Shown here: positions 5,104 to 37,425 of the stretch, piece after piece | Layout: every line of letters begins with the position of its first letter | Position numbering within the stretch: the first letter of the stretch is position 1 | Origin: a virus | Lineage: Duplodnaviria > Heunggongvirae > Uroviricota > Caudoviricetes | Virus record (IMG/VR): IMGVR_UViG_2565956616_000008 | Length of the DNA stretch: 37,425 nucleotides | Reading direction: 5' to 3' (one strand) | Position numbers and translations under genes: made by a program | The notes under the pieces: model-generated | The model's input: the letters and a program-made list of their open reading frames with translations, nothing else | Told to the model about the DNA's origin: nothing | Databases searched by the model: none

Positions 5104-5316
5104 ATGAACAAAAAGACCTGGTTTCGCGCATACATGTGGGCGCTGGTATGCGTCCTCGTTTCTCTCATTCTGTATGTGGGGCTACTTCCCAGAATGATTT
5201 CATCAGACAGCTCCTTCCTGGTATTGCTGGGCATTTTTGTCGCCTTGCTGTACCCGGCGGGCGTTGTTCGCTTTTTCAGTAACTACATCAAAGCAATTAT
5301 GGAAACCAAACAATGA
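5104..5316 (+). CDS. small inner-membrane protein (two predicted TM helices)
   Basis: 70 aa, two hydrophobic stretches; stop overlaps the start of the SPFH gene. Confidence 0.55.
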   Translation: MNKKTWFRAYMWALVCVLVSLILYVGLLPRMISSDSSFLVLLGIFVALLYPAGVVRFFSNYIKAIMETKQ

Positions 5317-6137
5317 AAAAACTATTACCACTCATCCCTCTCCTGATGACCACACTTCTGGTTGGCTGTGACCGCGTGGAGCCGGGCAATGTAGGCATCA
5401 AAGTCAACAAACTGGGCGACGATAAAGGCGTCGGTGAAGTAGTTGGCGTTGGCCGCTACTGGACAGGCTGGAATACAGAGGTTTACATCTTCCCGACTTT
5501 CAAACAAATGAAGACTTACGATGAGCCGTTCAACTTCCAGATGAGTGACGGCACAACCATCGGCTATCACATCGGCGTGGCCTACAAAGTTGATCCATCC
5601 AAAGTTACCACTGTGTTTCAGACCTACCGCAAAGGCGTGGATGACATTACCGACACTGACCTGCGCCAGAAGATCGCCGATGCACTCAACCGACTGGCCA
5701 GCAAAATGACCACCGATAAGTTTATCGACGGTGGCAAGTCTGAACTGCTGGATTCAGCACTTAAAGACATTCAGTCAGAAATGACACCTATCGGCATTCA
5801 GGTCATGAGCCTCTCTTATGTCGGTAAACCGGAATATCCGCCAACCGTTATCGACAGCATTAACGCCAAAGTCACGGCAAACCAGAAAACCCTGCAACGC
5901 GAACAGGAAGTCAAGCAACGCGAAGCAGAAGCCAACATGTTGCGCGCAGAAGCTGCCGGACAGGCTGATGCCATTCGCACAAAAGCCCAGGCTGAAGCCG
6001 ACGCCATTCGTTTACGCGGTGAAGCTCTGCGCCAGAATCCCGGCGTTATGGAGCTGGAAGCAATCAACAAATGGAACGGCACGCTGCCGCAATACATGAC
6101 CAGCAACACCGCTGTTCCGTTTGTTCCGGTGAAGTAA
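5313..6137 (+). CDS. SPFH/band-7 (HflK/C, stomatin-like) domain lipoprotein
   Basis: 274 aa; signal peptide with lipobox LLVGC; SPFH-like core followed by an Ala/Glu/Arg-rich coiled-coil tail, the usual SPFH architecture. Confidence 0.75.
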   Translation: MKKLLPLIPLLMTTLLVGCDRVEPGNVGIKVNKLGDDKGVGEVVGVGRYWTGWNTEVYIFPTFKQMKTYDEPFNFQMSDGTTIGYHIGVAYKVDPSKVTTVFQTYRKGVDDITDTDLRQKIADALNRLASKMTTDKFIDGGKSELLDSALKDIQSEMTPIGIQVMSLSYVGKPEYPPTVIDSINAKVTANQKTLQREQEVKQREAEANMLRAEAAGQADAIRTKAQAEADAIRLRGEALRQNPGVMELEAINKWNGTLPQYMTSNTAVPFVPVK

Positions 6138-7181: not shown

Positions 7182-10004
7182 ATGACGACAGAGTACATCA
7201 GGGACTGGCAACAACCGCGCCACGCAGTAGGGCGTGAAGGAACGGGGATCCCCGCTCCTGAATCCGTGCTTTCCTCCTGGCTGGATGCCTACCGGGCAGA
7301 GAACGAGCGCCGCCAGAAAATGGCTGATGCGGCGTTCTCCGCCACGCCGCTGGGCAACCTGATTAATAAAAGCCTGGACGCACAGGAAAAACAGGACAAA
7401 ACCATCGCACTGGCAGGAGACGCCAGAAAACAGGCACGCGGCGCGGTGGATGAAGCCATGGCCTCGCTGCGCCTGCTGCCGTCCTATCTGCGCGATCCGC
7501 TTATTCGCCACCTCTCCTTCCTGCGCAAAAAACAGGAAGCCGATCGCCGGAAAGGCAAAAAGAGCTGGCAGGCGGAACGCTATGCACGCGGAACCCTGCG
7601 CAAAATATTCGAACGTCTGGAGCGCACCGATCACCGCTGGCTGACACAGGGTTATCGCTCCCTTGCCGGACGCGAACGCCTGGACGATTTGCTTTACCTG
7701 CCGCAGCTCAACAAACACCAGATACAGACGCTGGCCACCATGACGGCGGCGATGTTCAGCAGCACCTTCGAAAAACTCTGCGATGGCTTTGGCGCGACCG
7801 ATGGCGAACTGACCATGGATGTAACGCTGAAGGCGTATCAGATGCTGGCCCGCATGGCGTTACACCTGCACATCATGCCTCCACATTATGACGCACTGAC
7901 AACAGATAAAGACCGGAGGAACGAACCGGACACGGAGCTGCTGCCGGGCGCAATCCTTCGCCTGACCTGTGCGGAATGGTGGAAACGCAAACTGTGGCTG
8001 TTACGTTGCGAGTGGAGAGAAGAACAACTCCGCGCCGCCTGTCTGGTTTCCAGAAAAACATCACCCTATCTGAGCCAGGACGCGTTAAGCGAGTTTCGCG
8101 CACAGAGCGAGAAAACACGCGATTTCCTGAAAAGTTTCATGCTGGAAAACGAAGACGGGTTCACGATTGATCTCGAGACAGTGTATTACGCGGGAGTAAG
8201 TAACCCGGTTCACCGTAAGGCAGAAATGATGGCCACCATGAAGGGGCTGGAACTTCTGGCCGAAGCCCGTGGCGACAAAGCGGTGTTTCTGACTGTCACC
8301 TGCCCGTCAAAATACCACGCCACAACAGAGAACGGTCATCCGAATCCCAAATGGAACGGGGCCACCATGCGCGACTCCAGCGATTACCTGGTTAACACGT
8401 TTTTTGCAGCGGTCCGCAAGAAACTGAACCGCGACGGCCTGCGCTGGTATGGCATCCGCACGGTGGAGCCTCACCATGACGGCACCGTGCACTGGCATAT
8501 GATGGTCTTTGCTCATCCGGAAGAAATCGACACCATTGTGTCCCACACCCGCGATATTGCCATTCAGGAAGATCGTCACGAGCTGGGTGATGATATTACC
8601 CCACGCTTTAAGGCGGAGTTCGTCGACGGCTCAAAAGGCACGCCAACCAGCTACATCGCCACCTACATCGGAAAGAACCTGGACAGCCGCGCCGTGGATG
8701 GCATCGACCCGAAAACGGGCAAGCCACGCGTTGACCACGAAACAGATAAATCAATGGCCGAGAGCGTGGAGCGCGCCATCGGCTGGGCGCGCCTTCACCG
8801 GGTCCGCCAGTTCCAGTTCTTTGGCATCCCCTCCCGTCAGGTGTGGCGTGAACTCCGCCGCCTTGCCAGCCAGATGGCACGCAACCCGGAAGGCCCGCAA
8901 CGGCTGAAGGATGACGCAATGGATGCGGTTCTTGCTGCCGCTGATGCCGGGTGTTTTGCCACCTACATTGAAAAACAGGGTGGCGTACTTGTTCCGCGCA
9001 AGGACTACCTGATTCGCACAGCCTACGACCTCGCAGATGAGCTTAACGATTACGGCGAACAGAGTGTACAGATTTACGGGATCTGGTCGCCATTCATCGG
9101 GGAATCCTCCCGTGTGTGCACGCATCCGGATAACTGGAAGCTGGTAAGACGTAAACCGGAAGCGGAGGACAGCACCCGCGAAAATGGTTTTGACCTTCAG
9201 GGCGGCCCTGCCGCCCCTTGGACTCGTGGCAATAACTGTCCCCGTGTACAGGAAACGGACAACAACGGGACAGAACAGCCGGAAGAACGGCCAGCACCGT
9301 GGCCGCAGCTCCCTGACGGCGTTGAAGTGAACGAATGGATGCGCTCACTGAAACGGCACGAACGCCGGGCGCTGATGCGTTCGCTTCGTGACAAACAGGC
9401 AAAAAACAGCAGTGATGAAATGCAGAGCTGGACACAGAGCCGCAAACAGCAGCGGCCTTTGCCTGATAACCACGAATTACTCGCTAAAGAATGGCGGGAG
9501 TCTGCTGAATCTCTCGGCCTGCATATTGGTGAACAGCAGATGCAGCACCTGTTACGGGGCGGCAGTCTGTACGTTGACGGCAGCATCATTGCACCGCAGG
9601 GATTTGAAATTGTACGCAAACCGGATACCCGTCCGGACAGCCGGATCACGCAGCTCTGGCAGCGCCTGAGCCGTAACCACGGCGTAAGCAGCACGGAGAT
9701 CCGCCATAACCCGGTCGCCAGCTATCTGGAACAGCTGGGGGCATCAGACCCCGAAGCCGCCGCACGCCTGGCATCCACACTTCAGCAGGACCAGAACACC
9801 ATGAAAACACCCGTTACCGTGCTTTCTGACATGCTGCGCGCCATCCGCGACGCAGAGCACGCACAGAGAATCAGTGAAACCACTGAACGCGCCCGCCGCA
9901 AAGCAGACCTGCTGCGGGGTGGCCTGACCAGTGGAAACAAAAAACAGACAGAAACGGGATTCACAAATCCCGTAAATGAGCAAAAAACGCGCCGCGATAT
10001 ATGA
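7182..10004 (+). CDS. A: Replication initiator (P2 gpA family rolling-circle endonuclease) with a C-terminal extension
   Basis: 940 aa; position after the early genes and overall similarity to the P2 A family as recalled (region around YIATYIGKNLD); longer than P2 A, which I recall as about 760 aa. Confidence 0.85.
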   Translation: MTTEYIRDWQQPRHAVGREGTGIPAPESVLSSWLDAYRAENERRQKMADAAFSATPLGNLINKSLDAQEKQDKTIALAGDARKQARGAVDEAMASLRLLPSYLRDPLIRHLSFLRKKQEADRRKGKKSWQAERYARGTLRKIFERLERTDHRWLTQGYRSLAGRERLDDLLYLPQLNKHQIQTLATMTAAMFSSTFEKLCDGFGATDGELTMDVTLKAYQMLARMALHLHIMPPHYDALTTDKDRRNEPDTELLPGAILRLTCAEWWKRKLWLLRCEWREEQLRAACLVSRKTSPYLSQDALSEFRAQSEKTRDFLKSFMLENEDGFTIDLETVYYAGVSNPVHRKAEMMATMKGLELLAEARGDKAVFLTVTCPSKYHATTENGHPNPKWNGATMRDSSDYLVNTFFAAVRKKLNRDGLRWYGIRTVEPHHDGTVHWHMMVFAHPEEIDTIVSHTRDIAIQEDRHELGDDITPRFKAEFVDGSKGTPTSYIATYIGKNLDSRAVDGIDPKTGKPRVDHETDKSMAESVERAIGWARLHRVRQFQFFGIPSRQVWRELRRLASQMARNPEGPQRLKDDAMDAVLAAADAGCFATYIEKQGGVLVPRKDYLIRTAYDLADELNDYGEQSVQIYGIWSPFIGESSRVCTHPDNWKLVRRKPEAEDSTRENGFDLQGGPAAPWTRGNNCPRVQETDNNGTEQPEERPAPWPQLPDGVEVNEWMRSLKRHERRALMRSLRDKQAKNSSDEMQSWTQSRKQQRPLPDNHELLAKEWRESAESLGLHIGEQQMQHLLRGGSLYVDGSIIAPQGFEIVRKPDTRPDSRITQLWQRLSRNHGVSSTEIRHNPVASYLEQLGASDPEAAARLASTLQQDQNTMKTPVTVLSDMLRAIRDAEHAQRISETTERARRKADLLRGGLTSGNKKQTETGFTNPVNEQKTRRDI

Positions 10005-10045
10005 AGCGCGCATAAAACAGGCAAAAACGGGATTTCAGAATCCCG
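9954..10045. repeat. Two copies of a 20-bp palindrome (ACGGGATT-N4-AATCCCGT) 72 bp apart
   Basis: 9954..9973 ACGGGATTcacaAATCCCGT and 10026..10045 ACGGGATTtcagAATCCCGT, each flanked by AAACGGG...CCCGTAAA; first copy lies inside the 3' end of gene A, second just upstream of the parM-like gene. Confidence 0.5.
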
Positions 10046-10080
10046 TAAACGATTAATTAATCAACATAAGGAAAAGCGAC

Positions 10081-10909
10081 ATGAAAATTTGTATCGATGA
10101 CGGCTCCACCAACATCAAGCTGGCATGGACTGAGAACGGCCCAGACGACCGACACGCAATACCAGTACAGCGATGTGAATGTCATTGCCATTCATCACGC
10201 GCTGGTCAAATCAGGCATCACGCCACAGGAGGTGGATGTGGTTGTCACCCTGCCACTGAGCGAGTATTTCGACACAAACGCACAGCCGGACATGACCAAC
10301 ATCAACCGCAAAAAAGCGAACGTTATGCGCCCGGTGGAGTACCAGAACGGCGAAGCATTCACTATCCGTAACGTACGGGTTATGCCTGAATCCATTCCGG
10401 CTGGCTTTAAGGCACTGGCTGACATGAGTCCGTTTGAATCCCTGCTGATTGTGGATTTGGGCGGAACCACGCTGGATGTGGCAAAGGTTCAGGGGCAACT
10501 GGCAGGTATCAGCTAGGTGTTTTGCGATCCACACGTAGGCGTTTCTCTGATGGCCGATGCCGTACTGTCGGTGATGGCCACTAACGGTATGCGCACCAGT
10601 CACCACATCGCCAATACCATTATCGAACATCGCCATGATGAAGCCTGGCTGCGCCAGCACATCCACAATGACGCGCATTACGCCAGCCTGATGGCGGTTA
10701 TTCGTGAAAAGGAAGAAACACTGAAACAACGCGTGATCCGCGCGCTGGCGGGTTTTTCGGGTTACGGGCGGGTGATGGTTGTCGGTGGAGGGGCGGAGAT
10801 TGTGGCACCCGCTATCCGCGAAGCCTGCGGAGTTAATGCGACTTTCATCGCGGACGGGGTGCCACAGTTTGCTCTGGTTAATGGGCTGTACGCAATGGAC
10901 AAGGAGTAA
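10081..10909 (+). pseudogene. ParM/StbA-like actin-type partition ATPase, disrupted by a frameshift and an in-frame TAG
   Basis: N-terminus MKICIDDGSTNIKL in frame 1 (10081..); body with LIVDLGGTTLDV in frame 2 (10097..10516); in-frame TAG at 10514..10516; C-terminus with VMVVGGGAEI continues in the same frame to 10909. Confidence 0.7.
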
Positions 10910-10913
10910 ACCA

Positions 10914-11225
10914 ATGACGACACCAACCAGACGGATAAGTTTCTATCTGAAGCCTGCGGCCGTCAAGAACGAAAGCGAAGCATGCGCCTGGCTGGACAGC
11001 CTTACACCAGAAGCCCGCAAAAGCGGCCAACGCGTGGCTTTTCTGGCCGGGCTGGCACTTCTGAAAATGAATCCGGCAGAGGCTTACCGACTGGCTGCAT
11101 GGGCTGACGATGAGGCGTTATCAGTGACACAAACCAGGACAGAATGCCCCGCGTCACAGCCAGTATCAACCGCACAGATAACCAGTCAGATGGCCGGAAA
11201 TATCCGGGCGTTATTTCCCGAATAA
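10914..11225 (+). CDS. ParR/StbB-like small partition protein (tentative)
   Basis: 103 aa; AAGGAG 7 nt before ATG; pattern RRISFYLKP...LDSL...AFLAGLALLK...LFPE resembles plasmid StbB as recalled; sits directly after the parM-like gene as in parMR loci. Confidence 0.5.
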   Translation: MTTPTRRISFYLKPAAVKNESEACAWLDSLTPEARKSGQRVAFLAGLALLKMNPAEAYRLAAWADDEALSVTQTRTECPASQPVSTAQITSQMAGNIRALFPE

Positions 11226-11288
11226 CACAACATCAGGGCGCATCCGCCCTGATGACTTTAATCCGGGAACATAAACAAGGGGGACACA

Positions 11289-11624
11289 ATGCAACACATT
11301 GACAGAGAAAAAGCGCAGCGACTGATTGAGCGAATGGAAGCGCTGGCGAAAGAAGAAAATGTCAACATCCAAAAAATAGCTGAATGTGGCCAGATAGTTC
11401 TTCGTCGTGAAAAAGACATCAAGCAACTGATGTCTGGCGGAATCAGCAAAACATGGACTTCAGGCAAGAAGACGATTTATTGCAGCTTCTGCAATAAATC
11501 CCAGCACGAAGTCATAAAGGTGATTGCCGGACCGTCTGTTTACATCTGCAATGAGTGCGTGGATTTGTGCAATGAAATTATCAGAAGAGAAGTGACAGAC
11601 CATGAAGAAAAAACGCATGAATGA
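11289..11624 (+). CDS. Small protein with a C-terminal ClpX-type zinc-binding domain (orphan ClpX N-domain)
   Basis: 111 aa; residues [38 protein letters not shown] closely match the ClpX N-terminal C4 zinc-finger dimerisation domain as recalled; no AAA+ module follows; AAGGGGG upstream. Confidence 0.75.
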
Positions 11625-11686
11625 CGAATTTGACGGCTTTTAATTTTATCGGGGCGCACTGTCTCCCCCCGCACGAGGAAAACACG

Positions 11687-12211
11687 ATGAAAAAATACGA
11701 ATACATGCTAATGAAAGAAGCACTGCGGGCTGGTCTGGCTCCCTGTCCTGTATCCGTAGAAGCTGTTGTTGGGAACACGATTTTCCGAACGCTGCGAAAT
11801 CGCGTATCCGTGAAGATGATTCACCAACCACCCAAATCTACCAGCATGATCTATCTGCCGCTGCCCGAGGCTATCAAACTTATGCGTTCGCTGAAATTTG
11901 CGATTTGGATGCAGACACAACTCAACAAAGCGGTGCAAAACACCTTCGTTAAGAAACTGATGCCGGAGCTTGCTGCCAGATGTGCAAAATGTACCAGACC
12001 CGCACTTCAATTTGATCTGTCATTGATTCAACAAGCTACGGAGGCAGAACTGTACCGCCTGTCACCTCTCCATGATGTTCACACGGAAGCCTCAGAAATG
12101 TTCCGGCTCATGTTTCAATTTAATTTTGCCGTTCGACGCACACGCGTTCAGGTCAATCGCATGATGCAGGCGCAGGAAGAGCTGACGCAACACAAAGGAG
12201 GCAACCAGTGA
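11687..12211 (+). CDS. hypothetical protein
   Basis: 174-aa ORF from ATG 11687 (GAGGA 8 nt upstream); track ORF starts earlier at 11621. Confidence 0.5.
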   Translation: MKKYEYMLMKEALRAGLAPCPVSVEAVVGNTIFRTLRNRVSVKMIHQPPKSTSMIYLPLPEAIKLMRSLKFAIWMQTQLNKAVQNTFVKKLMPELAARCAKCTRPALQFDLSLIQQATEAELYRLSPLHDVHTEASEMFRLMFQFNFAVRRTRVQVNRMMQAQEELTQHKGGNQ

Positions 12212-12732
12212 GCAAGATTGACTATCAGGCATTACGCGAACGCTATTCACCTGCGCCAGTACCGAAATGCCCTATTTGCGGCGAGGAAATGTCAATTCAG
12301 CGAATATCTGGAGCACAGGTTGTTTATGCCTGCTCCGGTTATGGTGATGATGGAGATTTCAAAATTGGTCGAACTCTTGCCGACGAACATTATGAAAAAT
12401 CGCGCGTAACAGTGTTGGATGTCGGGGATCCTGAAGTATTGGCGCTACTTGATTGGCTGGAAACTAAAGACAACCGAATCGCTGAACTGGAAAAAATCGC
12501 CACTGACTATGCACTTAAATTCCAGAAAGCACAGGACGCATTAAAGCATGCCGCTTTGCTGCATAGCCGGACGGCGCAACAAACAAATAATTTTGCAGTA
12601 TCGCTTCCGGACATAAGCGAATATTTCATTAATGACGTATTTCAGCCCTTGCGATACGAGCGGGATGTTGAAAGAGCCATCATAAAGGCTGGCGGAAAAG
12701 CATTGTGGCAGGAGAAACACGACGACAGATAA
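12208..12732 (+). CDS. hypothetical protein with N-terminal Cys pairs (possible zinc ribbon) and coiled coil
   Basis: 174 aa; GTG start overlapping the previous stop, AAAGGAGG upstream; CPICGEEM...YACSG at the N-terminus. Confidence 0.55.
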   Translation: MSKIDYQALRERYSPAPVPKCPICGEEMSIQRISGAQVVYACSGYGDDGDFKIGRTLADEHYEKSRVTVLDVGDPEVLALLDWLETKDNRIAELEKIATDYALKFQKAQDALKHAALLHSRTAQQTNNFAVSLPDISEYFINDVFQPLRYERDVERAIIKAGGKALWQEKHDDR

Positions 12733-24444: not shown

Positions 24445-26772
24445 ATGAGTACCACAACACGAAAATTTAAAACCATTATCACTGATACTGGTGCCAAAAA
24501 ATTAGCTCAGGCAGCCGCGCCAGATGGTAATCCTGTCCGCCTGACTCACATGGCCGTGGGCGACGGTGGCGGCACGTTGCCCACACCAGACAGTAAGCAG
24601 ACCCGTCTGGTGCATGAGGTGTGGCGACATACTGTTAATCGCGTCATCCTGGACGCAACACATCAGAACCGCATTATTGCGGAGCTGGTTATTCCTCCTG
24701 AAACGGGCGGATTCTGGATCCGGGAAATTGGTGTATTTGATGAGCACGGCGATTTGATCGCGGTGGGCAATACTGCCGAAAGTTACAAGCCAGCCGTTGC
24801 CGAAGGATCCGGACGTGCACAAACATTTCGCACCATTCTGACCGTATCCAGCACTGCCACCGTGGCGCTTACCGTGGATAACACCATGGTTATGGCCACA
24901 GTGGATTACGTGAATGACAAACTGAAAGAACATGAACAGTCACGACGTCACCCGGACGCCTCGCTGACCGCAAAAGGCTTTGTTCAACTCAGTAGCGCCA
25001 CCAACAGCACGTCTGAAGCACTGGCCGCAACGCCGAAAGCGGTCAAGGCAGCCTATGACCTTGCTAACGGGAAATATACCGCACAGGACGCCACCACAGC
25101 GCGAAAAGGTCTTGTCCAGCTCAGTAGCGCCACAAACAGCGATTCTGAAACGCTTGCGGCAACGCCAAAGGCGGTAAAGGCAGCATATGACCTCGCTAAC
25201 GGGAAATATACCGCACAGGATGCCACCACAGCGCGAAAAGGTCTTGTCCAGCTCAGTAGCGCCACCAACAGTGATTCTGAAACGCTTGCGGCAACGCCAA
25301 AGGCGGTAAAGGCCGCGTATGACCTTGCTAACGGGAAATACACTGCACAGGATGCCACTACAGCGCGAAAAGGTCTTGTCCAGCTCAGTAGCGCCACCAA
25401 CAGTGATTCTGAAACGCTGGCCGCAACATCAAAAGCGGTGAAGTCTGCCTATGACAATGCTGAAAAACGTCTTAAGAAAGATCAGAACGGTGCGGATATT
25501 CCGGGAAAGGATACCTTCACGAAAAATATCGGTGCCTGTCGTGCTTATAGCGGCGCTTTGAGCACTGAAGCCGGAAACTGGACAACCGCTCAGTTTATTG
25601 AATGGCTGGATTCCCGTGGTGCATTTAATCATCCGTACTGGATGTGCAAAGGCTCATGGTCATATGCAAATAACAAAATCATTACGGATACCGGATGTGG
25701 TGATATCCACCTGGCTGGTTGTGTCGTCGAGGTCATGGGAACTAAATCTGCAATCACTATCCGAGTGACCACGCCGACAACATCAAGTGGTGGCGGTACA
25801 ACCAGCGCGCAATTCACTTACATTAATCATGGGGGCGGCCACTCCCCCGGCTGGCGTCGTGACTGGAATCGTCAGGGCGACTCAATGACCGGAACGATTA
25901 ATCAGGATGGCGGAAGCCAGAATGCCTATATGTCTACGGCCTTATGTTCAGGCACCAGAGGCGGCAAAAAATATCTCAGAAAGTTTCGTGGTGGAGAAGG
26001 AGACACTATCTGGCATGAAACAGTACAGGGCGGGGTAATTCGCTGGGCGACAGGAAACTATGACGCTCAGGAAGAATTATCACTCAGCTCCGCTTATGGT
26101 CTCCGTTCAAGAGGTGAGATTACATCACTCAGTGCTAATGGTCTGCGCATTGCTTATGGCAATTATGGATTCTTTATCAGGAATGATGGCGGCAGCACAT
26201 ATTTAATGCTGACGGCCTCTGGCGATAAATTTGGGACATGGAACGGCTTAAGACCGCTGACTATCAATAACGCCAATGGCGGAGTGTCAATGGGGCATGG
26301 CCTGAGTGTTACAGGTGATATTGTCTCAAGTACCAAAGTACGTGCCGGTAGCGGGAAAAAGTTCACGGTCAGCAGCGGCAATACATCCACGAAGGAAGCC
26401 GCATTCAATTTGTGGGGAAACGCAAGTCGTCCGGTGGTGGCTGAATTAGGTGATGATGCAGGCTGGCATTTTTACAGTCAGAGAAATACAGATAACAGCA
26501 TCACTTTTGCTGTTAACGGGCAGGTATCACCATCTAACTATGGCAACTTTGATTCACGCTATGTCCGGGATATTAGACTTGGTGGTGCGTCATCCTATAA
26601 ACCAGCAAATAACGGTACAACATGGACGCATCAGGCTCCATCTGGTTGCGCATATACCGGGATTATCGTTCAGGATACAGGCTCAAACTCTGCCGATAAT
26701 ATTGGTGGTGTTTATTACAGACCAATTCAAAAAAATATTAATGGTACATGGTATAACGTATCGAGTGTTTGA
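24445..26772 (+). CDS. H: Tail fibre protein
   Basis: 775 aa; conserved P2 gpH-type N-terminus (MSTTTRKFKTIITDTGAKKLAQAA...); repeat-containing middle and variable C-terminus. Confidence 0.9.
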   Translation: MSTTTRKFKTIITDTGAKKLAQAAAPDGNPVRLTHMAVGDGGGTLPTPDSKQTRLVHEVWRHTVNRVILDATHQNRIIAELVIPPETGGFWIREIGVFDEHGDLIAVGNTAESYKPAVAEGSGRAQTFRTILTVSSTATVALTVDNTMVMATVDYVNDKLKEHEQSRRHPDASLTAKGFVQLSSATNSTSEALAATPKAVKAAYDLANGKYTAQDATTARKGLVQLSSATNSDSETLAATPKAVKAAYDLANGKYTAQDATTARKGLVQLSSATNSDSETLAATPKAVKAAYDLANGKYTAQDATTARKGLVQLSSATNSDSETLAATSKAVKSAYDNAEKRLKKDQNGADIPGKDTFTKNIGACRAYSGALSTEAGNWTTAQFIEWLDSRGAFNHPYWMCKGSWSYANNKIITDTGCGDIHLAGCVVEVMGTKSAITIRVTTPTTSSGGGTTSAQFTYINHGGGHSPGWRRDWNRQGDSMTGTINQDGGSQNAYMSTALCSGTRGGKKYLRKFRGGEGDTIWHETVQGGVIRWATGNYDAQEELSLSSAYGLRSRGEITSLSANGLRIAYGNYGFFIRNDGGSTYLMLTASGDKFGTWNGLRPLTINNANGGVSMGHGLSVTGDIVSSTKVRAGSGKKFTVSSGNTSTKEAAFNLWGNASRPVVAELGDDAGWHFYSQRNTDNSITFAVNGQVSPSNYGNFDSRYVRDIRLGGASSYKPANNGTTWTHQAPSGCAYTGIIVQDTGSNSADNIGGVYYRPIQKNINGTWYNVSSV
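24973..25500 (+). repeat. Four in-frame tandem repeats of 132 bp (44 aa) inside the tail fibre gene
   Basis: Copies start at 24973, 25105, 25237 and 25369 (aa unit GLVQLSSATNSDSETLAATPKAVKAAYDLANGKYTAQDATTARK); near-identical DNA, last copy diverging. Confidence 0.85.
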
Positions 26773-26774
26773 TT

Positions 26775-27308
26775 ATGATGCATTTAAAAAATATAAAACC
26801 GGGCAATCCAAAAACAAAAGAACAGTACCTGTTAACTAAAAACTCCGGCGTTGTCTGGTTATTCGCTGAAGATGGTAAAAACTGGTATGAGGAACAAAAG
26901 AACTTTCAGCCAGACACCATAAAGATTGCATATGATGAAAATAATGTCATATGCGACGTGCAAACGGATGTAACTGCAATTTGCCCGGAAGGAAAAAGTG
27001 TTGTCGAGTTGCCTAATATTACAGCAAACCGACGCGCTGATATTTCAGGTAACTGGATGTTTAAAGATGGCTCAGTCATTAAACGTGTGTATACCGAAGA
27101 AGAGCAACGCTTGCAGGCTGAAAACCAGAAACAAAGGTTATTACAGCAGGCCAGAGAAAAAACGCAGTTCTGGCAGACCCAGCTTGCATTAGGGATTATC
27201 AGTGATTCAGATAAGCAACAACTGATGCGCTGGATGCGGTACGTGCAACAAGTTGAGACCACTGATACCACTGAATTACCCGTTACGTTCCCTGATCAAC
27301 CAGAATAA
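26775..27308 (+). CDS. G: Tail fibre assembly chaperone
   Basis: ORF 26769..27308 immediately after H; first ATG at 26775. Confidence 0.75.
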   Translation: MMHLKNIKPGNPKTKEQYLLTKNSGVVWLFAEDGKNWYEEQKNFQPDTIKIAYDENNVICDVQTDVTAICPEGKSVVELPNITANRRADISGNWMFKDGSVIKRVYTEEEQRLQAENQKQRLLQQAREKTQFWQTQLALGIISDSDKQQLMRWMRYVQQVETTDTTELPVTFPDQPE

Positions 27309-27312
27309 ACGA

Positions 27313-27345
27313 AAGGCCCGAATATCGGGCCTTATCGTTATTTCT
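27313..27345. terminator. Bidirectional terminator between convergent G and U
   Basis: GGCCCGA...TCGGGCC hairpin flanked by A-rich sequence on one side and T-rich on the other. Confidence 0.6.
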
Positions 27346-27376
27346 GTTTATCTAACTATTTGTGATTTGCGTTAAA

Positions 27377-34229: not shown

Positions 34230-34423
34230 ACAACTTAGATGCATTAGCCCTGACATTTGCTAACGCGCCTACAGCAAGAATCATAATCAATCTGACAGCC
34301 TACCCGGTGTCAAAATCAGAAGTACCTTACATTAGAATATGTTAATTTGTAGCAAACAAATTTACACACAAATAATTACTGCTGAAATAGCGCCCCATAA
34401 ATGCCATGTCAGAGGACCATGTT

Positions 34424-35089
34424 ATGAATATGCAAATTTTTATTGGACCAACAGCCACAGTTGCCGCGGTCTGCCTTGCTGCATATTTTGCTTTACGAAA
34501 TGAGCGTAAAAAGAAAGCGCTTGAGATTAGAACAACTCAACTAGATCGAATATCTGAGCTAGTAAGCAGAGCATCTACCAATTTGATGCAATATACAGGT
34601 ACTCTTGCCTCTATACTGGAAGCGCACACCAAAGAAAATTATCTACCAGACCACAAATTTAACATTAATGAAATTAGCAAATGGAAAAATGATCTCGATA
34701 AGAGAGAAGATTGGGCTATTGATATACAGCAACTAAGAACATGCCAGCACAACCTGGAGTTTCATCGTGAAAAAGAATGGGCTGAATGGGAAAAAATAAT
34801 TCCACCATTACTTGATAAAATTAACCAATTTTTTCTCATATCCAAGCCGGGGCAACCTGTTACGCTTATAAATGGTCAAAATAAAACAGTCGATGAACTG
34901 ATTGCTTTCTCAATATACTTACAACAACAAACAGAAGAAATTAAAGCGGTACGTAAGCTGCTACTTTCTCAAATGAGAGAAGAATTCATCGAGTTAACTA
35001 GCTTTGAACCTGTCACAATATTTAGCTTATTAAAATCAATAAAGAAAAGTGTCCTGCAATTTTTCTGTATCAGTGCTCTTAAAAATTGA
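34424..35089 (+). CDS. AT-rich cargo gene: membrane-anchored hypothetical protein
   Basis: 221 aa from ATG 34424 (AGAGGA 7 nt upstream); N-terminal TM helix (IFIGPTATVAAVCLAAYFAL) then a charged helical domain; AT-rich relative to flanking phage DNA; own terminator downstream. Confidence 0.55.
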   Translation: MNMQIFIGPTATVAAVCLAAYFALRNERKKKALEIRTTQLDRISELVSRASTNLMQYTGTLASILEAHTKENYLPDHKFNINEISKWKNDLDKREDWAIDIQQLRTCQHNLEFHREKEWAEWEKIIPPLLDKINQFFLISKPGQPVTLINGQNKTVDELIAFSIYLQQQTEEIKAVRKLLLSQMREEFIELTSFEPVTIFSLLKSIKKSVLQFFCISALKN

Positions 35090-35559: not shown

Positions 35560-35772
35560 ATGGTCGGAGGGAATACCCGAAGGCCGGATGTGGAAAGGCC
35601 CCGGAAAACATTTTTGTTTAACCGAGGCCCTGACCATACAACCTTCGCAAGTCGTAGGTTAGCGCCTCTCCAACAAAGGAGCAAGCGCTATGTCGCAAAA
35701 ATCGCTTATGGCCATCACGTTCTGCGTGACGGTAATCCTCATCATCTGGATGCTGCACGGTTCGCTGTGTGA
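35560..35772 (+). CDS. mok-like overlapping reading frame of the hok-type locus
   Basis: 70-codon ORF in a different frame overlapping the leader and 5' part of the hok-like gene, the arrangement known for mok/hok. Confidence 0.35.
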   Translation: MVGGNTRRPDVERPRKTFLFNRGPDHTTFASRRLAPLQQRSKRYVAKIAYGHHVLRDGNPHHLDAARFAV

Positions 35773-35830
35773 AATACGGATGAGCTTCTGGGGAGCGGAG
35801 TTTGCGGCGTTCTTACAGTGTAAGCAGTAA
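35690..35830 (+). CDS. hok: Hok/Gef-family type I toxin (46 aa)
   Basis: Translation MSQKSLMAITFCVTVILIIWMLHGSLCEIRMSFWGAEFAAFLQCKQ: TM helix then conserved SLCEIR...E(F/V)AAF as in Hok/Gef as recalled; AAGGAG 8 nt upstream; below the ORF-track size cut-off. Confidence 0.8.
   Translation: MSQKSLMAITFCVTVILIIWMLHGSLCEIRMSFWGAEFAAFLQCKQ

Positions 35831-36132: not shown

Positions 36133-37425
<1,293 letters not shown>

Follow-up and report, generated by a model that had tools for sequence, protein, structure and literature searches.

Is the pair of partition genes at positions 10081..11225 of IMG/VR virus record IMGVR_UViG_2565956616_000008 a working segregation system, and what would such a system do in a phage that integrates? 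The record is a single stretch of 37,425 nucleotides, all of which was analysed and which is called the window here. A preliminary description, made from the letters alone, had proposed a decayed plasmid-type ParM/ParR (StbA/StbB-like) module inside a prophage. We hold with high confidence that the locus is the type II actin-like segregation cassette of P88-like phages, and that its parM has recently become a pseudogene in the prophage of Escherichia coli 113303. The proposed decay is thus that of parM and not of the whole module, since parR and the upstream repeats are unchanged.

The window is a P88-like prophage (Xuanwuvirus, Peduoviridae) of the P2 family and is collinear with phage P88. 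Its genes run in the order integrase, C repressor, cox, early genes, gene A, parM, parR, a ClpX zinc-finger gene and cargo, after which come the portal, terminase, head, lysis and tail genes. Approximately 28.7 kb aligns to P88 at 92-98% nucleotide identity, and gene A is 97% identical to P88 gp16 across 940 aa. The structural proteins are full length and 94-100% identical to those of P88, with the exception of the mosaic tail-fibre region and one tail protein (71%). Apart from ParM and that same tail-fibre region, the P88 proteins that have a counterpart in the window give single full-length matches, so the prophage as a whole is not decaying. The integrase lies at 1-1008 and the host serS gene (seryl-tRNA synthetase) at 36133-37425, and the element is therefore integrated. 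The only replication gene identified beside the cassette is the P2-type gene A (Phage_GPA), rather than a plasmid-type replication initiator.

Elsewhere in the element, the early region encodes an SPFH/Band 7 protein (5313-6137; Pfam E value 5.8e-31); its counterpart in P88, gp12, is 96% identical and carries the annotation lipoprotein / serine protease. A hok/gef-type toxin gene (35690-35827), 98% identical to P88 gp52, lies just before the host serS, and a 227-aa ORF near the right end of the prophage (34406-35089) is absent from P88 and had no Pfam or PADLOC match. The distal tail-fibre region and its assembly gene (25443-27366) differ from those of P88, and the DNA invertase and alternative fibre cassette of P88 are absent from the window. 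Directly after parR is a gene (11289-11624) for a 111-aa protein made up almost entirely of a ClpX C4 zinc-finger domain (Pfam E value 1.5e-17); it is conserved in P88 as gp19 and could mimic or titrate the ClpX N-domain. Between this gene and the portal gene is a variable cargo slot (11621-12732), which in the window holds a 196-aa protein without a family match and a 174-aa Ead/Ea22-like protein, neither with a PADLOC match. Other P88-like prophages have a 135-aa hypothetical protein, HicAB or a KAP NTPase in the interval from parR to the portal gene. A defence-system reading of the cassette was rejected, as no PADLOC model matched ParM, ParR or five neighbouring and accessory proteins at E <= 0.01.

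The features of the locus, with the evidence for each, are as follows.

7182..10004, plus strand: P2-type replication endonuclease gene A, 940 aa (Phage_GPA, E 1.9e-130)
9938..9979, no strand: 42-nt direct repeat copy 1, with palindrome ACGGGATT-CACA-AATCCCGT at 9954-9973, candidate ParR-binding site/parC (repeat search)
10011..10052, no strand: 42-nt direct repeat copy 2, with palindrome ACGGGATT-TCAG-AATCCCGT at 10027-10046 (repeat search)
10081..10140, plus strand: parM remnant, codons 1-20, MKICIDDGSTNIKLAWTENG, phosphate-1 motif (Pfam StbA_N, PF06406, positions 1-20, E 2.3e-7; alignment with an intact copy)
10140..10141, plus strand: junction of the parM deletion (alignment with the intact E. 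coli 10153 copy)
10142..10513, plus strand: parM codons 65-188 in a shifted frame, phosphate-2 motif LIVDLGGTT (StbA_N 63-157, E 3.6e-49; ParM C-terminal domain, PF21523, positions 1-30, E 8.4e-11)
10514..10516, plus strand: amber TAG in place of CAG (Gln189), from C to T at the inner cytosine of a Dcm site, CCAGG
10517..10909, plus strand: parM codons 190-319 and TAA, adenosine motif VMVVGGGAEI (ParM C-terminal domain 33-159, E 7.6e-50)
10914..11225, plus strand: parR, 103 aa, StbB/ParR adaptor family, intact (Plasmid_stab_B, PF10784, E 1.7e-24, profile positions 1-71 of 72)
11231..11254, no strand: GC-rich hairpin with a 10-bp stem, a possible end of the transcription unit (terminator-like scan); its T run is on the minus strand only, which leaves a terminator function uncertain

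The ORF map and the raw sequence place the whole ParM remnant at 10081..10909. The reading frame opens at the ATG at 10081 with MKICIDDGSTNIKLAWTENG, the actin-fold opening of ParM as had been proposed, and changes thereafter. The second frame reads TDTQYQYSDVNV...LIVDLGGTTLDVAKVQGQLAGIS up to the TAG, and past the TAG the same frame continues through VFCDPHVGV...VMVVGGGAEI...YAMDKE to the TAA at 10907-10909, which agrees with the C-terminal motif reported earlier. The Pfam matches are split across three frame segments and all score above the gathering cut-offs, and they place the genes in the ParM/StbA and ParR/StbB families rather than in a different one.

Both lesions were defined against the intact parM of E. 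coli 10153 (319 aa, WP_000686519.1). Pairwise alignment shows that 131 bp are absent between 10140 and 10141, corresponding to parM nt 61-191 (residues E21-V64), and because 131 is not a multiple of three the frame shifts. No microhomology was found in the sequence context of the junction. The preliminary description had placed a frame change at about 10130..10160 with about 45 residues missing; the position was right, and the exact count is 44 codons (21-64). The second lesion is a single C to T change at 10514, which turns codon 189 from CAG (Gln) into TAG. Here the in-frame stop had been seen correctly and its origin had not: a change from AAG had been supposed because R1 ParM has Lys at that position, where this lineage has Gln. 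All three nucleotide-binding motifs (phosphate-1, phosphate-2 and adenosine) remain readable, but with a frameshifting deletion and an internal TAG there is no continuous ORF for the whole ParM, and the window holds a pseudogene of the ParM/StbA family and no working member of it.

Besides these lesions the window parM differs from the consensus by three substitutions, one of them private and two each common to one other locus. The small number of extra substitutions, together with a parR that is the consensus and commonest allele, indicates that parM was inactivated recently. One further allele, P0122 (188 aa), has both A116T and the amber in common with the window parM; it was considered as the direct ancestor and rejected, as it differs at 27-28 other sites.

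The parR gene begins 4 nt past the parM stop and is preceded by a ribosome binding site, AAGGAG, at 10901-10906, so the earlier report of a StbB-like gene with a good RBS stands. The exact ParR of the window is indexed in 9,178 blocks of an assembly collection, and among the matches listed a 319-aa ParM adjoins it in nine of ten loci. ParR alleles have a conserved N-terminus and a conserved C-terminal NIRALFPE tail. A comparison of ParR with solved structures gave no sequence match.

Intact versions of the cassette are common at the same position in related prophages, as had been expected. The region 9900-11300 matched 1,308 of 5,426 complete E. coli genomes by megablast, the best matches being 99.1% identical, and all 30 matches listed fell into two pieces spanning 1,531-1,533 bp, versus 1,401 bp in the window. 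The E. coli 10153 annotation names a replication endonuclease, a 'plasmid segregation protein ParM' and a 'plasmid partitioning/stability family protein' here, and among the matches listed the annotation is likewise ParM followed by a partition protein. In P88 and other Xuanwuvirus records the intact parM and parR directly follow the replication endonuclease gene. An intact parM-parR pair, annotated as such in RefSeq, is standard in P88-like phages.

More distant relatives of ParM, 54-63% identical, occur in Hafnia, Plesiomonas, Serratia and Enterobacter, and in all of these the carrier is a P2-like prophage in which ParM and ParR come after a P2-type gene A and ahead of the portal gene. Since relatives at this distance occupy the same position, the cassette is an old conserved feature of an integrating P2-like clade and not a recent acquisition from a plasmid. 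The best plasmid-borne ParM match is 53% identical, leaving out six plasmid records with P88-type copies (>=99%). The comparison with phage-plasmids made in the preliminary description finds no support in this lineage: the element has an integrase and a serS flank, complete E. coli genomes have 1,454 of their 1,456 matching places on the chromosome, and the closest ParM proteins are found in integrated prophages. A ParM scan of species representatives found only three, in E. albertii, in Salmonella and on a 226-kb contig attributed to 'Vagococcus sp. WN89Y' (NZ_JBQPOM010000071.1). This last contig encodes a P88-type ParM at 98% identity, and is probably a product of Enterobacterales contamination of the assembly.

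Variation among the intact copies indicates that parM is maintained. Across 15 distinct alleles we counted 61 synonymous and 22 non-synonymous variants, and the resulting pN/pS of 0.11 shows that intact parM is under purifying selection in P88-like phages. The corresponding value for parR, 0.39, comes from a sample picked for identical ParR and was given no weight.

The sequence upstream of parM contains what could be the centromere of the system. The two 42-nt direct repeats are 81% identical and 73 bp apart, the first being overlapped by the 3' end of gene A, and each contains a palindrome of the pattern ACGGGATT-N4-AATCCCGT with 8-bp arms. This pattern occurs twice in the 37-kb window, versus 0.17 occurrences expected, and the downstream palindrome sits 35 bp upstream of the parM start. 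In three P88-like relatives the arms are invariant while the spacer varies, and the Salmonella copy has one base change in one arm of each palindrome. A comparable two-repeat layout, of different sequence and with 72-bp spacing, lies upstream of parM in a Plesiomonas phage, and plasmid and D6 relatives have other short repeat families there. Judged from their position and conservation, the two palindromes are probably bound by ParR and could be a candidate centromere that is unchanged in the window. The candidate parC consists of only two palindromic sites; plasmid parC regions are arrays of short iterons. A simple consensus scan of 9700-11400, which includes the gap between gene A and parM, yielded no sigma-70-like promoter, and the cassette may therefore be read through from gene A.

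The copy in E. albertii (NBRC 107761) has a ParM 100% identical to the E. coli reference and the same palindromes, with a ParR that keeps the N-terminal DNA-binding part and diverges strongly after residue ~15-30. This pattern suggests recombination within the cassette; as the DNA-binding part of ParR is conserved, it does not discriminate on co-variation of ParR with the palindromes. The repeats also produce a likeness between peptides: within 9938-10056 the C-terminus of gene A (…ETGFTNPVNEQ…) resembles the product of a 26-codon ORF at 9976-10056 (…KTGFQNPVND), which is likely a by-product of the DNA repeat and not a gene.

What the intact cassette does in a phage is a question on which a search of the literature on P88-like and Peduoviridae phages and of phage-plasmid reviews found no study. 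By analogy, the system of the intact relatives most likely works like R1 ParMRC on extrachromosomal circular phage DNA. ParR would bind the two palindromes and ParM filaments would push copies of the circular phage genome apart, during an extrachromosomal phase that may fall before integration, after excision or during replication. A different possibility, which we think unlikely, is that the cassette has been co-opted and has no segregation role. Instead, ParR might regulate the early operon, or the pair might position replicating phage DNA for packaging or keep out plasmids or other phages, in which case it would be this other function that is knocked out in the window. The carrier phages are integrative, and the cassette keeps its place between gene A and the portal gene as far out as the Hafnia, Plesiomonas, Serratia and Enterobacter copies, both of which would suit such a role. 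So would the upstream region, in which two palindromes without a predicted promoter do not resemble a plasmid parC, and the adjoining variable cargo region, which in P2 holds the old and tin genes. On the other hand, no defence-system model matches, every nucleotide-binding motif of ParM is conserved and the protein can be aligned to R1 ParM across its whole length, and ParR retains both the family N-terminal domain and the conserved C-terminal tail. In addition, one complete P88-like genome with intact parM and parR (NZ_CP148288.1, 34,461 bp), from a cat E. coli isolate, was deposited as a circular 'plasmid'. This circle may represent either a genuine episome or a replicative form after excision, and is compatible with an episomal stage.

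The cassette may also serve a purpose particular to phages. Tentatively, and with somewhat less than even confidence, we suggest that ParM and ParR, held by purifying selection between gene A and the portal gene and with a two-palindrome site of their own, have been kept for a phage-specific use of a cytomotive filament by a P2-like clade whose hosts are Escherichia, Salmonella, Citrobacter, Hafnia, Plesiomonas, Serratia and Enterobacter. In that event the filament could segregate or position the circular genomes of the phage, be it ahead of integration, once excised, or in the course of rolling-circle replication and packaging, as opposed to serving long-term plasmid maintenance. The window and the amber alleles at Dcm hotspots would then be ready-made natural knockouts.

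How parM came to be lost can be considered from the lesions themselves. Only two Dcm methylation sites (CCWGG) exist in the intact gene, one at nt 564 and the other at nt 695. At the first, CCAGG to CTAGG gives the Q189 amber (parM nt 565, window 10514), and at the second, the opposite-strand change CCTGG to CCTAG gives an amber at W233 (parM nt 698; position 2734 of locus L011). There are 19 positions in parM at which a C to T or G to A change creates a stop; the two Dcm ambers are among them, and both exist as natural alleles. The Q189 amber is found on three haplotypes that lie 12-28 nt apart (the window, TUM9812 and the P0122 group), and as these differ it must have arisen repeatedly. The W233 amber is carried by L011, P0137 and P0146, and further null alleles of parM consist of a frameshift (P0010) and an in-frame internal deletion (P0008). 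In the lacI work of Coulondre and Miller, deamination of 5-methylcytosine at CCAGG reportedly gave amber hotspots. The context is the same at the two parM sites, CCAGG to CTAGG in the window and CCTGG to CCTAG in the other natural amber, whereas the lacI hotspots came from a laboratory mutation screen and the parM ambers are natural prophage polymorphisms, with methylation presumed from the sequence of the sites. On that presumption the parM ambers are a natural-population example of 5-methylcytosine deamination hotspots.

A second explanation is that loss of parM was selected, for example because it removes interference or incompatibility with the ParMRC of a resident plasmid, or a costly filament protein, and the recurrent ambers would then represent convergent selection. 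The occurrence of the Q189 amber on three or more haplotypes, and of the W233 amber on several, could be read in this way, as could the presence of two independent lesions in parM when every other gene in common with P88 is full length. Ambers that recur precisely where the gene has its only two Dcm sites are, however, what a mutational hotspot would be expected to produce. The ambers are also rare, the exact 61-mer with the Q189 TAG occurring in one of 1,243 complete genomes and that with the W233 amber in two of 1,197, and the pN/pS of the intact alleles is the opposite of what widespread selection for loss would give. We regard selected loss as very improbable. The loss of parM is ordinary strain-specific gene loss in a well-annotated prophage family. 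It consists of the 131-bp deletion, which removed residues 21-64 and shifted the frame, and of the amber acquired at Gln189 by a C to T change at the Dcm site; no ParM filament would be made and the cassette would be inactive as a segregation machine. The loss would be tolerated because the integrated prophage, next to serS, is inherited with the chromosome.

That the frameshift and stop are errors of sequencing or assembly, and parM really intact in the strain, is an explanation to which we give almost no credence and which is already largely refuted: the source, GCA_000485655.1, is a draft assembly of the 2013 era and the exact junction is missing from a species-representative genome collection (the source strain is not among the species representatives), but a clean 131-bp deletion is atypical of read errors, the same amber is present in finished genomes such as that of TUM9812, and the assembly of a separate sequencing run, ERR8651861, reproduces both lesions. 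An exact-protein look-up recorded the 139-aa ParM fragment in only two assemblies, GCA_000485655.1 (contig KI521995.1) and the Logan assembly of ERR8651861, and both are 100% identical to the window across 6,420 bp covering both lesions. The run is independent whether it comes from E. coli 113303 or from another strain, and it did not restore the ORF, which answers the earlier suggestion of resequencing. Short junction queries against complete E. coli genomes carry no information on this point, as deleted and intact copies both match as two pieces and are indistinguishable.

The module was already known, and even the fragment in the window is annotated in public records (GenBank ESA60594.1, 'plasmid segregation protein ParM domain protein [Escherichia coli 113303]'). 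The present analysis indicates that the cassette is dispensable for carriage of the integrated prophage and that the parM ambers offer a clean natural example of Dcm-site hotspots. It raises the question of why integrating P2-like phages of several genera keep a segregation cassette beside gene A.

The closest known system is that of P88 itself, whose gp17 and gp18 (ParM and a partition protein) stand in the same order of gene A, parM, parR, ClpX zinc-finger gene, cargo and portal. Against the P88 proteins, identity is 98% for what the deletion has left of the window ParM and 95% for ParR. The 319-aa ParM reads through without interruption in P88 and in ~1,300 E. coli prophages, whereas the window has the 131-bp loss and an amber in place of codon 189. 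The window also departs from P88 in its cargo genes and in the immunity/integrase region. Among plasmid systems, the ParMRC (parA/stb, type II) of R1/NR1 likewise has a small ParR/StbB gene after parM and repeats upstream. An intact orthologue of the window ParM aligns over residues 2-316 to the R1 ParM structure 1mwk (E 9e-93), and the DDGSTNIK, DLGGTT and GGGAE motifs are conserved between the two. Identity to R1 ParM is nevertheless only ~50%, and R1 is a low-copy plasmid whereas in the window the cassette belongs to a phage that integrates and encodes a rolling-circle gene A protein. The parC of R1 consists of ten 11-bp iterons flanking a promoter, which lies inside parC; the window differs in having two 20-bp palindromes 73 bp apart, with no promoter predicted there. 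The P1-like phage-plasmid D6 has a ParM homologue that is 47.8% identical, with a small partition protein next to it. D6 is a 91-kb extrachromosomal phage-plasmid, whereas the element in the window is integrated, and its upstream repeats are different (TCTCAAAT...TCTCA, in three copies). The D6 record itself cites similarity to the StbA of P88.
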